Positions 4,390-30,351 of a DNA stretch of 64,000 nucleotides are shown piece after piece. The position numbers and the translations under genes are program-made. Source of the DNA: Gemmatimonadota bacterium. GTDB taxonomy: Bacteria > Gemmatimonadota > Gemmatimonadetes > Gemmatimonadales > GWC2-71-9. The notes below the pieces were generated by a model. That model saw nothing but the letters and a program-made list of their open reading frames with translations. It ran no database searches and had not been told where the DNA came from. Location: NCBI GenBank assembly GCA_041487875.1, contig JBGPOE010000003.1:12398-76397 (forward strand), written 5' to 3'. Within the stretch, counting starts at the first letter, position 1. Every line of letters begins with the position of its first letter.

Positions 4390-4417
4390 TTCCCCTTTCC
4401 CCATTCCCGCTTCCCCC
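4390..4417 (-). repeat. four tandem heptamers GGGAAGC GGGAATG GGGAAAG GGGAAAC (minus-strand sense) filling the ALDH-thiolase intercistronic spacer; canonical G-quadruplex-type motif
   Basis: Plus strand shows TTCCCnn starting at 4390, 4397, 4404 and 4411, an exact 7-nt phase. mRNA sense: UGA AA GGGGGGG AAGC GGG AAU GGGG AAA GGGG AAAC GUG. Confidence 0.8.
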
Positions 4418-4421
4418 CCTT

Positions 4422-5855
4422 TCACAGCGCCACCCACACAGTCTTCGTTTCCAGATAGCTGTCGAGCGCGTCCCGCCCCAGGTCGCGCCCGTAGCCGCTC
4501 GCCTTGAATCCGCCGAACGGCGCGCCCGCGTCGTAGAAGTTGTACGCGTTGATCCACACGGTGCCCGCGCGGATGGCGCGGGCCGCGCGATGCGCCTTCT
4601 GGATATCCTTGGTCCAGATGCCCGCGGCGAGGCCGTAGATGGTGCGGTTGGCGAGTGCCACGCCGTGCTCGAAGTCGTCGAAGGAGAGCACCGCCAGGAC
4701 CGGCCCGAAGATCTCTTCGCGCGCGATGGTCATCTCGGGCACGACTTTGTCGAACACGGTCGCCTCGACGAAGTAGCCCTTACCGTTCGCCTGCGCGGCC
4801 TTGCCGCCCGCGACCAGCGCGGCGCCTTCGTCCACGCCCTTCTTGATGTAGCCCAGGACCGTATCCTGCTGCTTCTTGGAGACGAGCGCGCCGAGTCGCG
4901 TGTTCTTGTCCAGCGGATCGCCCACCGTGAGCTTCTTGGCGCTCGCGGCGAGCTGCTCCACCACCTGATCGTGCACGCTCTTCTCGACCAGCAGGCGCGA
5001 GCCCGCGGCGCACACTTCGCCCTTGCCGTAGAAGATGCCGGTTTGCGCGCCGCGCACGGCCGCCTTCAAGTCGGCGTCCGCGAAGATGATGTTGGGGCTC
5101 TTGCCGCCGAGCTCCAACGTGAGGCGCTTGTTGGTGTCGGCCGCCATCCTCATGATCTGCCGGCCGACCTCCGTGGAACCCGTGAACGAGATCTTGTCCA
5201 CGTCGGGATGGCGCACCAGCGCCGCGCCCGCGGTCGAGCCGCCGCCCGCCACCACGTTGAAGGCACCAGGCGGGAAGCCCGCCTCGAGCGCCAGCTCGGC
5301 GAAGAGCAGGGCGGTGAGCGGCGTCTCCGAGGCGGGCTTCAGCACCACCGTGCATCCCGCCGCCAGCGCGGGGGCGAACTTCCAGCTGGCGATGTTGAGC
5401 GGGAAATTCCACGGTACGATGGCGCCCACCACGCCCACCGGCTCGCGCAAGGTATAGACGAAGAACGGGCCGTCGACCGGCAGCGTATCGCCCGTGATCT
5501 TGTCGGCCCAGCCCGCGTAGTAGCGCAGCGTGTTGACCGTGAGCGTCAGCTCGATCTTCGACTCGAACAGCGTCTTGCCGTTGTGCGCCGTCTCGAGCCG
5601 CGCGAATTCGTCGAGCCGCGCCTCGAGCAGATCGCCGGCCTTGGACAAGAGCCGGCCGCGTTGGCGCGCGGAGAGGCCGCGCCAGGCGTCCGAATCGAAA
5701 CAGGCCCGCGCCGCGGCGACGGCAGTGTCCACGTCGGCCACATCGCCCAGGGCGACCTGGGCGATCACTTCCTCCGTCGCCGGGTTGACCACGGGGAAGC
5801 GTTTGCCCGAGGCCGCGGGCCGCCATTCGTTATTGATGAAAAGGTCGGTCCTCAC
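4422..5855 (-). CDS. NAD(P)-dependent aldehyde dehydrogenase
   Basis: ORF 4422..6077 trimmed to GTG 5855-5853 ([20 protein letters not shown]), which forms a GTGA overlap with the upstream stop. ALDH motifs [29 protein letters not shown] (catalytic Cys region) and EEIFGPV. Confidence 0.9.
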
Positions 5856-28325: not shown

Positions 28326-28801
28326 TCAGCCGCATTCTCCTCGTCTGCACGGGCAACATCTGCCGCAGTCCCCTCGCCGAGGCGCTGCTGCGGCGTGACC
28401 TCACTGCGCGCGGGTTCCCCGAGATCGACGTCGGGTCGGCTGGGACGGGCGCGTGGGACGGTGCTCCGGCCTCTGAGGGGGCGTACCTGGTGGGGCTCGA
28501 GCGCGGGCTGGATCTGTCGGGCCATCGCGCGCGGCTGCTCACGCGCGAGCTGGTGGAAGGCGCCGATCTGGTGCTCACCATGGCGCGGCACCACCGGGCG
28601 CGGGTGGAGGAGTTGGGCGGGGAAGGGCGCGTGTCCGTGCTCGGCGAGTACGCCGGCCGCGACGGCGACGACGCGGAGGTGAGCGACCCGTTCGGCGGCG
28701 ACCTCGACGTGTATCGCGACACCTGCGCCGAGCTCGAGGCGCTGAGCGTGGCCGTCACCGAGCGGCTCGCGCGGGAGCGACAGAGTGGAGATCGGCGCTA
28801 G
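28322..28801 (+). CDS. low-molecular-weight protein-tyrosine (or arginine) phosphatase
   Basis: ORF 28238..28801 trimmed to ATG 28322, which forms an ATGA overlap. Active-site loop VCTGNICRSP (CX5RS) and downstream DP(F)GG. Confidence 0.8.
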   Translation: MISRILLVCTGNICRSPLAEALLRRDLTARGFPEIDVGSAGTGAWDGAPASEGAYLVGLERGLDLSGHRARLLTRELVEGADLVLTMARHHRARVEELGGEGRVSVLGEYAGRDGDDAEVSDPFGGDLDVYRDTCAELEALSVAVTERLARERQSGDRR

Positions 28802-29606
28802 CACCCGCCTGTTGGCGGTGCTGGGCGACCCCGTCGCTCACTCGCTCTCTCCCGCCATGCACAACGCGGCCATCCGCGCCCTGGGGTTCGACGCCGTGTA
28901 CGTGGGGCTGCGCGTGCCGGCGGCCGCGCTCCCGGACGTGCTCGCCGCACTCGCCGCGATCGGCGCCGCGGGCAACGTCACCATACCGCACAAAGAAGCG
29001 GTGGAACGCCACGTCACGCGCAAAACCGATGCGTGCGTCAAGGTCGGGGCGTGCAATACGTTCTGGGTGGAGCGCGGCACCCTGGTGGGCGATAACACCG
29101 ACGTGACCGGCGTCCGCGCGGCGCTCGGTGCGCTGGGTGCCGACGGCGCGCGGCGTTGGCTGGTGCTCGGGACGGGCGGCTCAGCGCGCGCGGTGGCGAT
29201 TGCCGCGGCCGCCGCCGGCGTGGAGCTGCGCGTGCGCTCCCGCGCGCCCGAGCGCGCCGCCCGCTTCGCCGCCTGGGCGGCCGAGCACGGCGCCCGCGCC
29301 GCCGTCTGCAAAGACGGGGAGCCCGCCGAGGTCGTGATCAATGCCACACCCCTGGGACTCGCACCCAACGACCCGCTGCCAGCCGATCCCGCGCGACTCA
29401 CGGGCGTGCGCTGGGCGCTGGACATGGTGTACGCCGCGGGGCTGACCCGCTGGGTTCAGGCGCTGCGGGCGGCGGGTGTGGCGGCACACGACGGCCGCGA
29501 GATGCTGGTGCGCCAGGGAGCCGCTGCCTTCGACCGCTTCTTCCCCGAGGCGAGCGCCCCGCTCGAAATCATGCGCGCGGCAGTCGCCCGCGCGCTCCAT
29601 GCCTAA
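28785..29606 (+). CDS. aroE: shikimate 5-dehydrogenase
   Basis: ORF 28785..29606. LLAVLGDPVAHSLSPAMHNAA, NVTIPHK, GDNTDVTG, LGTGGSARA. Confidence 0.85.
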   Translation: MEIGASTRLLAVLGDPVAHSLSPAMHNAAIRALGFDAVYVGLRVPAAALPDVLAALAAIGAAGNVTIPHKEAVERHVTRKTDACVKVGACNTFWVERGTLVGDNTDVTGVRAALGALGADGARRWLVLGTGGSARAVAIAAAAAGVELRVRSRAPERAARFAAWAAEHGARAAVCKDGEPAEVVINATPLGLAPNDPLPADPARLTGVRWALDMVYAAGLTRWVQALRAAGVAAHDGREMLVRQGAAAFDRFFPEASAPLEIMRAAVARALHA

Positions 29607-30351
29607 CGCGCTCGACCAGCTGTTGCTCCCGGCCGAGTGTTTGCTCTGCCGGAACCTGCTGGCGTTTGCCGAGGCGGACCGGCTCGTCTGCGCTCCTTGT
29701 CGGTACCGCTGGCGCCCGGTGCGGCCGCCGTGGTGCGCGCGCTGCGGCCAGCCCGGCCCGAGCTTCGGTCCGTGCCGCCTGTGCGCCCGCTGGCCCGCGG
29801 CGCTCACGTCGGTGCGGTCCGCCGTGTGGCTGGACGGCGGGGCGCGCGTTGCCGTGCACGCCCTCAAGTACCGGGGGCTAGGCCGCGTCGCCCCGGATCT
29901 GGCGGATGTCATGGTGCGGCATCTGCCGCGGCCGCTGGCGGGCGCGGCGCTCGTCCCTGTGCCGCTCGCGCCGCGGCGTCAGCGCGAGCGGGGCTATAAT
30001 CAGAGCGCCCAGTTGGCCACGGCGTTGGGCGCACGCTGGGGCACGCCCGTGCGGGATGTTCTCATCCGGCGCCGCGAGACGCGCACCCAAACGGCGTTGA
30101 CACCGGAAGCGCGCCTGGCGAACGTGGCGGGGGCGTTCCAAGTGCGGAATGGCGAATGCGGAATGCGAAATGAACACCACTCCGCATTCCGAATTCCGCA
30201 TTCCGCATTGGGACCAACGCTCGTTCTGGTCGATGACGTATTTACGACCGGCGCCACGCTCGTCGCGGCGGCCGCGGCGCTCGCGGCGGCGGGCGCGAGT
30301 GACATCGGCGCGGTCACCTTCGGCCGCGCGGCAATACCGGACTTCACTTAG
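29599..30351 (+). CDS. comF: ComF-family protein (amidophosphoribosyltransferase-like), carrying an in-frame 21-codon repeat insertion
   Basis: ORF 29476..30351 trimmed to ATG 29599. N-terminal Cys pairs (CLLC...CAPC, CARCG...CRLC), YNQSAQLA, PRTase motif [14 protein letters not shown]. Confidence 0.8.
30144..30206. repeat. 63-nt imperfect palindrome built from 7-mers: (GCGGAAT-like)x4 - GAACACC - (ATTCCGC-like)x4, inside comF
   Basis: Left arm GCGGAAT GGCGAAT GCGGAAT GCGAAAT (30144-30171), a 7-nt spacer, then right arm ACTCCGC ATTCCGA ATTCCGC ATTCCGC (30179-30206). 9x7=63 nt=21 codons ([21 protein letters not shown]). Visibly AT-richer than the flanks. Confidence 0.85.

Follow-up and report, generated by a model that had tools for sequence, protein, structure and literature searches.

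The DNA considered here is a 64,000-nucleotide stretch from a Gemmatimonadota bacterium of the order Gemmatimonadales (GenBank assembly GCA_041487875.1, contig JBGPOE010000003.1, positions 12,398 to 76,397 of the forward strand), called the window below, with a GC content of 68.6%. It holds five short arrays of heptanucleotide units, one of which forms both arms of a hairpin that is translated as part of the comF gene. These arrays, their host genes, and their counterparts in relatives are the subject of this report. Genes in the window were called by GC3 frame analysis and Pfam, and the compared relatives carry labels of the form L### for DNA loci and P#### for ComF proteins. The arrays and the genes that contain them are as follows.

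4388..4421, minus strand: array 1, GGGGGGGAAGC GGGAATG GGGAAAG GGGAAAC, in the spacer between an aldehyde dehydrogenase gene and a thiolase gene

14389..14730, minus strand: His-rich open reading frame (ORF) of 113 aa, called from its translation and tblastn

14432..14460, plus strand: array 2, GGGGAAA GGGGAAG GGGGAAA CGGGAAGC, antisense to the 3' end of the His-rich ORF

15992..17212, plus strand: icd, isocitrate dehydrogenase of the Iso_dh family (Pfam PF00180, E=8.7e-92; GC3 frame plot)

16742..16783, plus strand: array 3, (GAAGCGG)x5.6, that is, GCGGGAA GCGGGAA GCGAGAA GCGGGAA GGG, inside icd

About 25644-26999, plus strand: radA/sms, host to an octamer-arm hairpin at 25750-25826 in a linker

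29599..30351, plus strand: comF, a ComF-family phosphoribosyltransferase of 250 aa (Pfam DZR_2 and Pribosyltran)

30137..30213, plus strand: array 4, a hairpin with heptamer-repeat arms, inside comF

55993..56022, plus strand: array 5, GAAAGCT GAGGGCT GATGGCT GACGGCT (GAnnGCT x4), at the nuoF/nuoG junction

A sequence-only reading had listed four heptamer arrays in this DNA, and all four are present. Its array 1 was correct in sequence and in being intergenic but misplaced by 2 nt, as the true span is 4388-4415 on the minus strand and not 4390-4417. Array 2 reads GGGAAAG GGGAAGG GGGAAAC GGGAAGC at 14433-14460, on the strand opposite to the His-rich gene, array 3 reads GGGAAGC GGGAAGC GAGAAGC GGGAAGG at 16753-16780 within the Iso_dh-family gene, and array 4 is indeed a related GCGGAAT-type inverted pair within the ComF-family gene; the peptides that had been quoted for the coding arrays match the translations. 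Array 5 was absent from that list and came from a period-7 scan. It covers the nuoF stop codon, a GAGGG Shine-Dalgarno-like sequence, and the nuoG ATG (both genes are named from the flanking N- and C-terminal protein sequences only), and as a single array seen in the window alone, it could be a product of chance. The term "family" suits arrays 1 to 3, which have a GGGAA core in common, but not the comF unit, which is GCGGAAT, or array 5, which is unrelated. For searches, a G-rich heptamer array can be written as GGGAANNGGGAANNGGGAANNGGGAA. Arrays 1 to 3 stand singly, with no partner arm found by local reading or by a window-wide search for inverted repeats, and an Rfam scan of the whole window at the gathering score returned only a tRNA-Leu at 9582-9666, with no RNA family at any array.

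Heptamer periodicity in this DNA far exceeds what its composition predicts. Four-unit arrays were scored by at least 17 of 21 lag-7 self-matches per scanned segment, and the window contains five, whereas 100 dinucleotide shuffles averaged 0.09 and never exceeded 1; over the shuffle runs, the expectation ranged from 0.09 to 0.2. Within the 64 kb, the arrays exceed compositional expectation, and for period 7 in particular, the shuffles rule out a chance origin. No enrichment was seen in the window for periods 4 and 5, periods 8 to 14 gave zero arrays at these thresholds, and period 6 gave two arrays versus 0.22 in shuffles. The same excess, about 50- to 100-fold, appears in every group sampled: 33 arrays versus 0.3 in the close clade, 10 versus 0.2 in distant Gemmatimonadota, 27 versus 0.3 in loci at 55-60% citrate synthase identity, and 22 versus 0.4 in unrelated phyla, all from a sample of relatives biased to the comF and citrate synthase neighborhoods. 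Density is 7.8 arrays per 100 kb in the window and about 3 per 100 kb in the other sampled bacteria, which would extrapolate, from one 64-kb window and the sampled loci, to about 100 to 300 arrays per genome.

The arrays also fall in a narrow size range. Those in the window have 3.4 to 5.6 units each by Tandem Repeats Finder (TRF), and in 828 kb of Gemmatimonadota sequence, copy numbers cluster at 3 to 5 units, with more than 5 units in only 2 of 35 non-comF arrays; the lower bound of this range is set by the detection threshold. The size distribution is equal for units with and without a G3 or C3 tract. Inverted pairs account for 37 of 94 TRF period-7 arrays, a figure inflated by comF orthologues. 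Two arrays are longer than this: a Gemmatimonadales metagenome-assembled genome (MAG) has GTCTGGC x10.3 (L021 15184-15255), and a Verrucomicrobiae MAG has AGAGGTC in about 13 copies (L056 12576-12672).

The hairpin in comF was followed through the DNA of 38 Gemmatimonadota comF loci. In the window, its 5' arm comprises TGCGGAA x4.3 (30143-30172) and its 3' arm TCCGCAT x4.1 (30181-30209), and together they make up the longest inverted repeat of the window, with 36-nt arms that are 81% complementary and a 5-nt loop. The predicted RNA fold has an energy of -51.4 kcal/mol, compared with -32.5 +/- 3.7 for shuffled sequences (z = -5.2). The hairpin is read in frame and falls in the linker that joins the NVAGAF motif to the next conserved motif. 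The gene product has an identical counterpart, P0001, and matches relatives named ComF; gap-pgk-tpi lies directly downstream, and this synteny extends to L002 and L004. Distant Gemmatimonadales ComF proteins have an 8-aa linker after NVAGAF, to which the close clade adds 16 to 21 residues, encoded by inserts of 48, 51, 54, or 63 nt that are always in frame. ComF homologues of the clade keep the hairpin segment, in the form of two arm-matched peptides, RNxECGMRNE...SAFRIPHS and RIDDCGLRIG...SAIRNPQS.

Which unit occupies the arms depends on the species. It may be GCGGAAT, GCGGATT, GCGGAAC, or GCGGAGT, and the opposite arm is in each case its exact complement. In an alignment of 12 species over a 31-pair stem, 86.6% of the cells are standard pairs, and 10 pairs have changed on both sides, accounting for 33 cells. 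None of 500 shuffles reached the covariation score, and partners slid by 1 to 3 columns pair only 25-50% of the time. The double changes recur every 7 columns. A particularly close comparison is that of L007 with L008, in which the flanking comF DNA is 87-90% identical while one and the same position of the unit differs in nearly every unit of the two arms. The unit type is, moreover, incongruent with a neighbor-joining tree of ComF, a rough tree built on 230 residues in which the short-branched sister pairs are the informative part. Because the arms covary and change in concert, we conclude that the comF hairpin is maintained or regenerated at the level of the nucleic acid. Covariation of the arms as base pairs is a pattern that no protein constraint would yield.

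L007 and L008 both belong to the MAG "Gemmatimonadetes bacterium AG3" (contigs QHUK01000009 and QHUK01000017), in which the comF region is represented twice, in syntenic copies with about 88% identity. Such a pair points to a bin that mixes two related populations more than to a true duplication.

L006, L014, L017, P0002, P0005, and P0006 have either no comF hairpin or only part of one. In L006, the linker has the length seen in distant relatives, yet it keeps GCGGAATGCGG...GCATTC. Loss or gain of this sort is one of the features expected of miniature mobile or palindromic elements (miniature inverted-repeat transposable elements, repetitive extragenic palindromic [REP] sequences, or elements like the Rickettsia palindromic elements [RPEs]) that insert intergenically and in frame, and presence or absence among close relatives extends to array 1, to comF (L006, P0002, P0005, and P0006), and to the mdh hairpin, which L008 lacks. 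Inverted-repeat architecture also fits such elements, and Rickettsia RPEs offer a general precedent for palindromes inserted in frame within genes.

Hairpins with heptamer arms were likewise found between genes in relatives, at the following eight sites, each given with its unit.

L007 15425-15504: GTCATCC

L008 3940-4023: GGGAGAC

L018 20188-20261: TATCGGT

L024 6492-6604: TCCGAGT

L097 1463-1549: ACCGGGT

L105 14123-14202: ATGTCCA, followed by a T-rich tail

L011 12589-12664: CAAGCCG

L013 2736-2800: GGAGGCG

In L007, L018, L024, L105, and L011, five of the eight, an ORF stop codon is no more than about 15 nt away from the 5' arm; the L008 hairpin begins 77 nt past a stop, and for L097 and L013, no flanking ORF passed the filter. 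The hairpins of L007, L011, and L018 occupy one orthologous site, the 3' end of mdh, with unrelated units. At that site, L008 has a stem of only 6 bp despite 95.5% identity to L007 over the Mdh C terminus, and the window has an ordinary short GC hairpin. Between them, L007 and L008, which come from one MAG, contain four different heptamer units.

Array 1 was likewise compared with its orthologous site in relatives. Its units (GGGAAGC GGGAATG GGGAAAG GGGAAAC on the minus strand, 4388-4415) and a run of seven G that reaches 4421 fill the 34-nt spacer between the aldehyde dehydrogenase stop codon (4422-4424) and the thiolase GTG start codon (4387), beginning 3 nt past the stop and ending directly before the start. 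Both flanking genes lie on the minus strand, and the G-rich strand is the coding strand. Six relatives with 82-93% thiolase identity (L101, L102, and L166-L169) are missing the array, and in them, the stop codon of the aldehyde dehydrogenase gene overlaps the thiolase start codon in a single GTGA; the window at 4384-4424 reads GTGA, 34 nt of array, and GTGA again. As judged from this absence in six relatives with the GTGA overlap, array 1 is a recent, lineage-specific insertion that separates two translationally coupled genes. Either the doubled GTGA is a target-like duplication of 4 nt, or no other outcome was viable: with stop and start overlapping in GTGA in the ancestor, selection would demand that sequence on both sides.

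The 4-nt GTGA duplication counts in favor of a mobile element, even though the need for both a stop and a start explains it equally well. Other evidence is harder to reconcile with mobility. No sequence is common to the loci, even within one MAG, where L007 and L008 have four units; unrelated units occupy one orthologous site; and the comF unit changes in concert in situ. No transposase or REP-associated tyrosine transposase (RAYT) was noted beside any array, although no systematic search for one was made. A mobile element of fixed sequence is at odds with the locus-specific units, the unrelated units at one orthologous site, the seed-like or remnant short stems in sister taxa, and the recent appearance of array 1. 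The suggestion that the arrays are remnants of a small mobile element is not supported, as each locus has its own unit, differing even at one orthologous site, and no element sequence is shared; we regard this explanation as very improbable.

The position of array 1 immediately before a start codon also bears on another idea, namely, that the arrays are bound by a protein that recognizes their sequence, or by one that binds single-stranded RNA in a 7-nt register. Array 5, which covers both a Shine-Dalgarno-like sequence and a start codon, and the GGGAA core common to three arrays in 64 kb are in keeping with it, as is the hypothesis put forward for TAACTGA repeats (MacGregor 2015, PMC4679880). 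Units that differ so widely between loci, however, provide no single recognition sequence, three of the five window arrays are within ORFs, and the comF and intergenic inverted pairs would be base paired and so unavailable as single-strand sites. No candidate protein has been identified, and of all the explanations weighed here, this one we consider the most improbable.

Array 2 lies at the end of the His-rich ORF, which is upstream of a BBP2 porin gene and divergent from citrate synthase. Seven metagenome contigs with 88-91% citrate synthase identity (L086, L087, L089, L090, L091, L093, and L110) have four-unit GGGGAA-type orthologues of the array about 355 to 400 nt upstream of citrate synthase, and their GGGGAAn units differ between contigs. 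Most keep four G tracts; L090 has only three G3 tracts. The encoded protein is conserved too, with 69-78% identity by tblastn in eight relatives and an ORF of 113 aa in six. Its tail, ...FPLPLSPSF... in the window, is encoded by array 2 and is conserved at a fixed length as FP[LIV]P[PLR]SPSF in the eight relatives. The FPxPxSPSF tail is nothing other than (TTCCCCN)3 read in three frames, and its variable residues fall at the N position of the unit. DNA-level and protein-level constraint are both compatible with this conserved tail and appear inseparable at this locus. The protein itself has no Pfam match, contains the motif CHHHYGAMGHHHGH, includes Cys, and has a hydrophobic N terminus that looks like a signal peptide by eye; in the periplasm, it may act as a metal-binding partner for the BBP2 porin.

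Array 3, which TRF places at 16742-16779 with 5.6 copies, encodes a segment of a surface loop of Icd. Among relatives, this loop varies from 34 to 46 aa in whole codons, and the same loop contains other G-rich heptamers in L109 (GGGGGAA), L092 (GGGAACG type), L090 (GGGGAAG), and L107 (CGGGGGA). The heptamer-bearing loops are those of the closest relatives, and the others are nonperiodic and of 34 or 40 to 41 aa; the loop peptides are all rich in Gly, Lys, and Glu. We considered a clean 21-nt insertion here and set it aside, as its polarity is uncertain: the 34-aa loops belong to nearer relatives (79-82% citrate synthase identity) than the two with nonperiodic loops of 40 to 41 aa (76%). What we claim for icd is only a length-variable loop with heptamer units that are specific to the species, with the direction of length change uncertain.

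Such tails and loops raise the question of whether periodic coding DNA simply follows from protein-level selection on low-complexity peptides, namely, a tail rich in Pro, a loop rich in Gly and Lys, and a linker, with the intergenic case a coincidence. The fixed-length FP[LIV]P[PLR]SPSF tail in eight relatives and the uniformly Gly/Lys/Glu-rich Icd loops would accord with this, as would the octamer hairpin of radA, in which the conserved RadA motif PPVRLSA falls on the 3' arm. Array 1, in contrast, is noncoding, and hairpins with heptamer arms also occur between genes. In comF, the arms covary as Watson-Crick partners, with exchanges of N/I, E/D, and M/L encoded by one arm and of F/I, I/N, and H/Q by the other that follow no protein logic. 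Repetition at the peptide level, furthermore, would not create a 7-nt period, in which each unit passes through all three frames, and in the array 2 tail, the variable residues sit exactly at the N position. Selection on the protein is, in our judgment, quite an improbable general cause. The claim that the periodicity belongs to the DNA and not to the peptides stands at least for array 1, which is intergenic, and for array 4, with its base-pair covariation in 12 species; in array 2, protein-level conservation is possible. Comparison of orthologues, which the sequence-only reading had called for, gave presence/absence differences for arrays 1 and 4, retention of the site with unit variation for arrays 2 to 4, and length variation for arrays 3 and 4.

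The GGGAA core invites an explanation in terms of G-quadruplexes (G4s), in which four GGGAAnn units would be selected as four G3 tracts with 4-nt loops, forming an intramolecular DNA or RNA structure that modulates neighboring genes. Rehm et al. (2015, PLoS One 10:e0144275, PMC4692102) proposed G4s for the heptamers of Xanthomonas and Nostoc and described G4 formation in vitro for GGGAATC repeats, which are very similar to those studied here, with no function established. Arrays 1 and 2 have at least four G3+ tracts with loops of at most 5 nt (G3N1-5 x4), and the window has only five motifs of this kind, these two included; array 1 is on the coding strand between a stop and a start, a position enriched in Xanthomonas, and most array 2 orthologues keep four G tracts. 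Each of the four consecutive GGGAANN units of arrays 1 and 2 has a G3+ tract, but in array 3, only three of four units have one, its third tract having a G-to-A change that would make an 11-nt loop necessary; the comF unit has only GG, and array 5 has no G tracts. The L090 orthologue of array 2 is down to three G3 tracts, and the mRNA of the His-rich ORF carries the C-rich strand of the array. The window has 7 G4 motifs, barely above the 4.2 +/- 2.1 of shuffles. Units without G3 or C3 give the same sizes of 3 to 5 units, so the four-unit size needs no G4. On the motif criterion, G4 formation is possible for arrays 1 and 2 only; with just two arrays qualifying and non-G-rich arrays being of the same size, we rejected it as a general explanation, and as the force behind the arrays, we consider it unlikely.

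Heptamer repeats with many of these properties are known from other bacteria. Rehm et al. (PMC4692102) describe GGGAATC arrays in X. campestris and X. axonopodis and GGGGA(C/T)T arrays in Nostoc PCC 7120. In Xanthomonas, there are 183 to 186 heptamer loci per genome, with a preference for four units and 70 to 75 convergent inverted pairs per genome. The arrays lie between co-directional ORFs, at most 50 bp from a stop and on the coding strand, and 83% are conserved in position between species while length and sequence vary. Their consensus is GGGA.T., with positions 1 to 4 and 6 conserved and at least one exact GGGAATC. Nostoc arrays extend to, e.g., 26 units and include few inverted pairs. 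Earlier work that they cite found heptamers to be overrepresented in many bacterial genomes, with the idea that polymerase slippage favors the unit size.

The likeness to our arrays comprises the 7-nt unit, the GGG(G)A(A) core with variable 3' positions, a size of about four units, convergent inverted pairs able to form stem-loops, a site near a stop codon for array 1 and for most of the intergenic hairpins in relatives, positional conservation with variation, and, for Xanthomonas, a high-GC Gram-negative host. The differences are as follows. Arrays 1 to 3 conserve positions 1 to 5, vary at position 6, and contain no exact GGGAATC. One dominant unit prevails genome-wide in Xanthomonas, whereas most loci of the clade studied here have unrelated and often non-G-rich units. 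Three of the four arrays first listed here are intragenic, versus 7-11% in Xanthomonas, in a sample that is far too small and too biased on our side for a firm comparison. Concerted change of arms and translated in-frame hairpins, both seen here, are not mentioned in the sections of Rehm et al. consulted. The statement that high-GC diderms have no known equivalent is nevertheless incorrect, given the Xanthomonas GGGAATC arrays with their four-unit preference and 70 to 75 inverted pairs. Arrays 1 to 3 are the local counterpart of the G-rich heptamers of Xanthomonas and Nostoc.

Two further repeat classes call for comparison. The heptanucleotide short tandemly repeated repetitive (STRR) sequences of cyanobacteria were first reported in Calothrix PCC 7601 (reference 39 in PMC4692102). 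The parallel with STRRs that the sequence-only reading drew is apt, as both are dispersed tandem heptanucleotides with no established function. STRRs are mostly noncoding, and the hosts differ, being cyanobacteria on the one hand and a Gemmatimonadales MAG on the other. The STRR unit sequences also differ from the GGGAAnn and GCGGAAT found here. MacGregor (2015, PMC4679880) described TAACTGA direct repeats of 2 to 6 copies in Beggiatoaceae, Cyanobacteria, and Bacteroidetes, which are phylogenetically scattered, are often directly upstream of start codons, include one indirect repeat in 170 sets, and were proposed to be single-strand protein-binding sites. Heptamer direct repeats before start codons recall array 1 and the nuoF/nuoG array, but the TAACTGA unit is single, fixed, AT-rich, and almost never inverted. 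Repeats of the TAACTGA type (TAACTGA CAACCGA CAACTGA ...) were also observed in Candidatus Poribacteria (L055 6795-6830 and L057 3732-3765), which is not among the phyla listed for that unit (MacGregor 2015, PMC4679880).

The translated comF hairpin also has analogies among palindromic elements. REP sequences, their mosaic arrangements (bacterial interspersed mosaic elements), and RPEs are short palindromes found after gene ends, where they form mRNA stem-loops, and RPEs can lie in frame within protein genes and be translated, like the comF hairpin. Both REPs and RPEs have a conserved sequence that is repeated in the genome, and REPs have the associated RAYT transposase; the hairpins described here differ in having locus-specific units and arms with an internal 7-nt period. 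Two general mutational processes are also relevant. Together, quasipalindrome template switching and slipped-strand mispairing predict the four main observations, namely, perfecting of one arm by copying of the other, homogenization of tandem units, gain and loss, and double changes that look compensatory but involve no selection. Taken alone, these processes leave the 7-nt step and the stop at 4 to 5 units unexplained.

Array numbers beyond chance, the acquisition of array 1 in a single lineage, conserved positions with turnover of units, covariation, and the concerted change in comF lead us to propose that the arrays are probably heptanucleotide simple-sequence repeats of a known and widespread class, generated locally by slippage and template switching and persisting as stem-loops or tolerated linkers. 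Under this proposal, they would arise in place, without transposition. Slipped-strand mispairing in 7-nt steps would produce direct arrays, and fold-back (quasipalindrome) template switching would produce inverted pairs. Arrays would grow to about 4 to 5 units (about 28 to 33 nt) and then undergo constant contraction, reexpansion, and homogenization. They would persist at two kinds of sites. One would be between co-directional or convergent genes, right after stop codons, where an inverted pair would give the transcript a long stem-loop, a putative 3'-end or processing hairpin. The other would be within genes, where only linkers or surface loops, such as the comF linker and the icd loop, would tolerate them, and only if the reading frame is kept; there, the repeat would simply be translated. 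Both the mechanism and any role at the RNA level are what we infer from these patterns.

Several observations weigh against this proposal of local slippage and template switching. The two processes are themselves read from patterns in the sequence alone. In most species, the second unit of the 5' arm of the comF hairpin is a region of internal mismatch; its core deviations are kept in nearly all species, yet it follows the concerted change at position 6, and such persistent deviations are not predicted by simple duplication and deletion of units. A role of the comF hairpin as an intrinsic terminator is not supported: the sequence after the hairpin is GGGACCAACG, and a consensus scan of 29900-30500 found no U tract, no sigma-70-like promoter, and no terminator-like site. 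Array 1 is a full four-unit block flanked by the 4-nt GTGA duplication, with no intermediates among the six relatives, a pattern that could mean one-step insertion and not gradual expansion. Finally, period-8 arrays also exceed shuffles in the sampled sequence, and these include the in-frame radA hairpin (25750-25826), with octamer arms of AGGCGGTC x4.1 and TCCGCCTG x2.8 and a fold of -52.6 kcal/mol (z = -2.0). In at least 10 other Gemmatimonadota loci, the radA linker has orthologous arrays of period 8 whose units differ. The process is thus not strictly heptameric.

Some of these same features would suit a stronger reading, in which hairpins with repeat arms (of 7 nt, or 8 nt in radA) make up a distinct class of self-renewing structural elements in Gemmatimonadales, with a dedicated or unrecognized mechanism and a selected function at the level of structure. 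Its basis is that position and architecture (arms of about 4.5 units, a stem of about 31 bp) are conserved while the sequence is rewritten again and again in the two arms together, even in linkers of essential genes. Were this so, ordinary slippage and drift would be insufficient, and candidate mechanisms would be register-shifted gene conversion of the hairpin or one-step block insertion, as hinted at by the GTGA-flanked 34-nt insert of array 1. We consider such a class decidedly unlikely.

The arrays extend the poorly understood heptanucleotide phenomenon, documented earlier mainly in cyanobacteria, Xanthomonas, and Beggiatoaceae, to the Gemmatimonadota, an abundant but little-studied soil phylum for which a literature search found no report of such heptamer repeats. 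The repeat class is already known; the translated hairpin, the concerted evolution of two arms, and the G-independent four-unit size are modestly new. The four-unit size of units without G tracts argues against G4s as the general cause of the four-unit preference. This size, the occurrence of hairpins with unrelated units at a shared orthologous position, and the concerted change of both comF arms at about 88% identity constitute comparative evidence that earlier work lacked, and these patterns make slippage and template switching, selection for structure, and G4 formation testable against each other. There are consequences for annotation as well, because lineage-specific in-frame inserts occur in the conserved proteins ComF, Icd, and RadA, and translationally coupled genes can be split.

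The octamer of the radA hairpin has a wider distribution of its own. AGGCGGTC and its variants CGGTCAGG and GACCGCCT occur at unrelated loci in different genomes, in up to 6.9 copies. The sites are L025 13660-13714 and 13835-13885, L101 20837-20872, and L013 4913-4947, and the two in L025 are inverted relative to each other at a distance of about 120 nt. In contrast to the heptamers, the AGGCGGTC octamer may be a family conserved in sequence.

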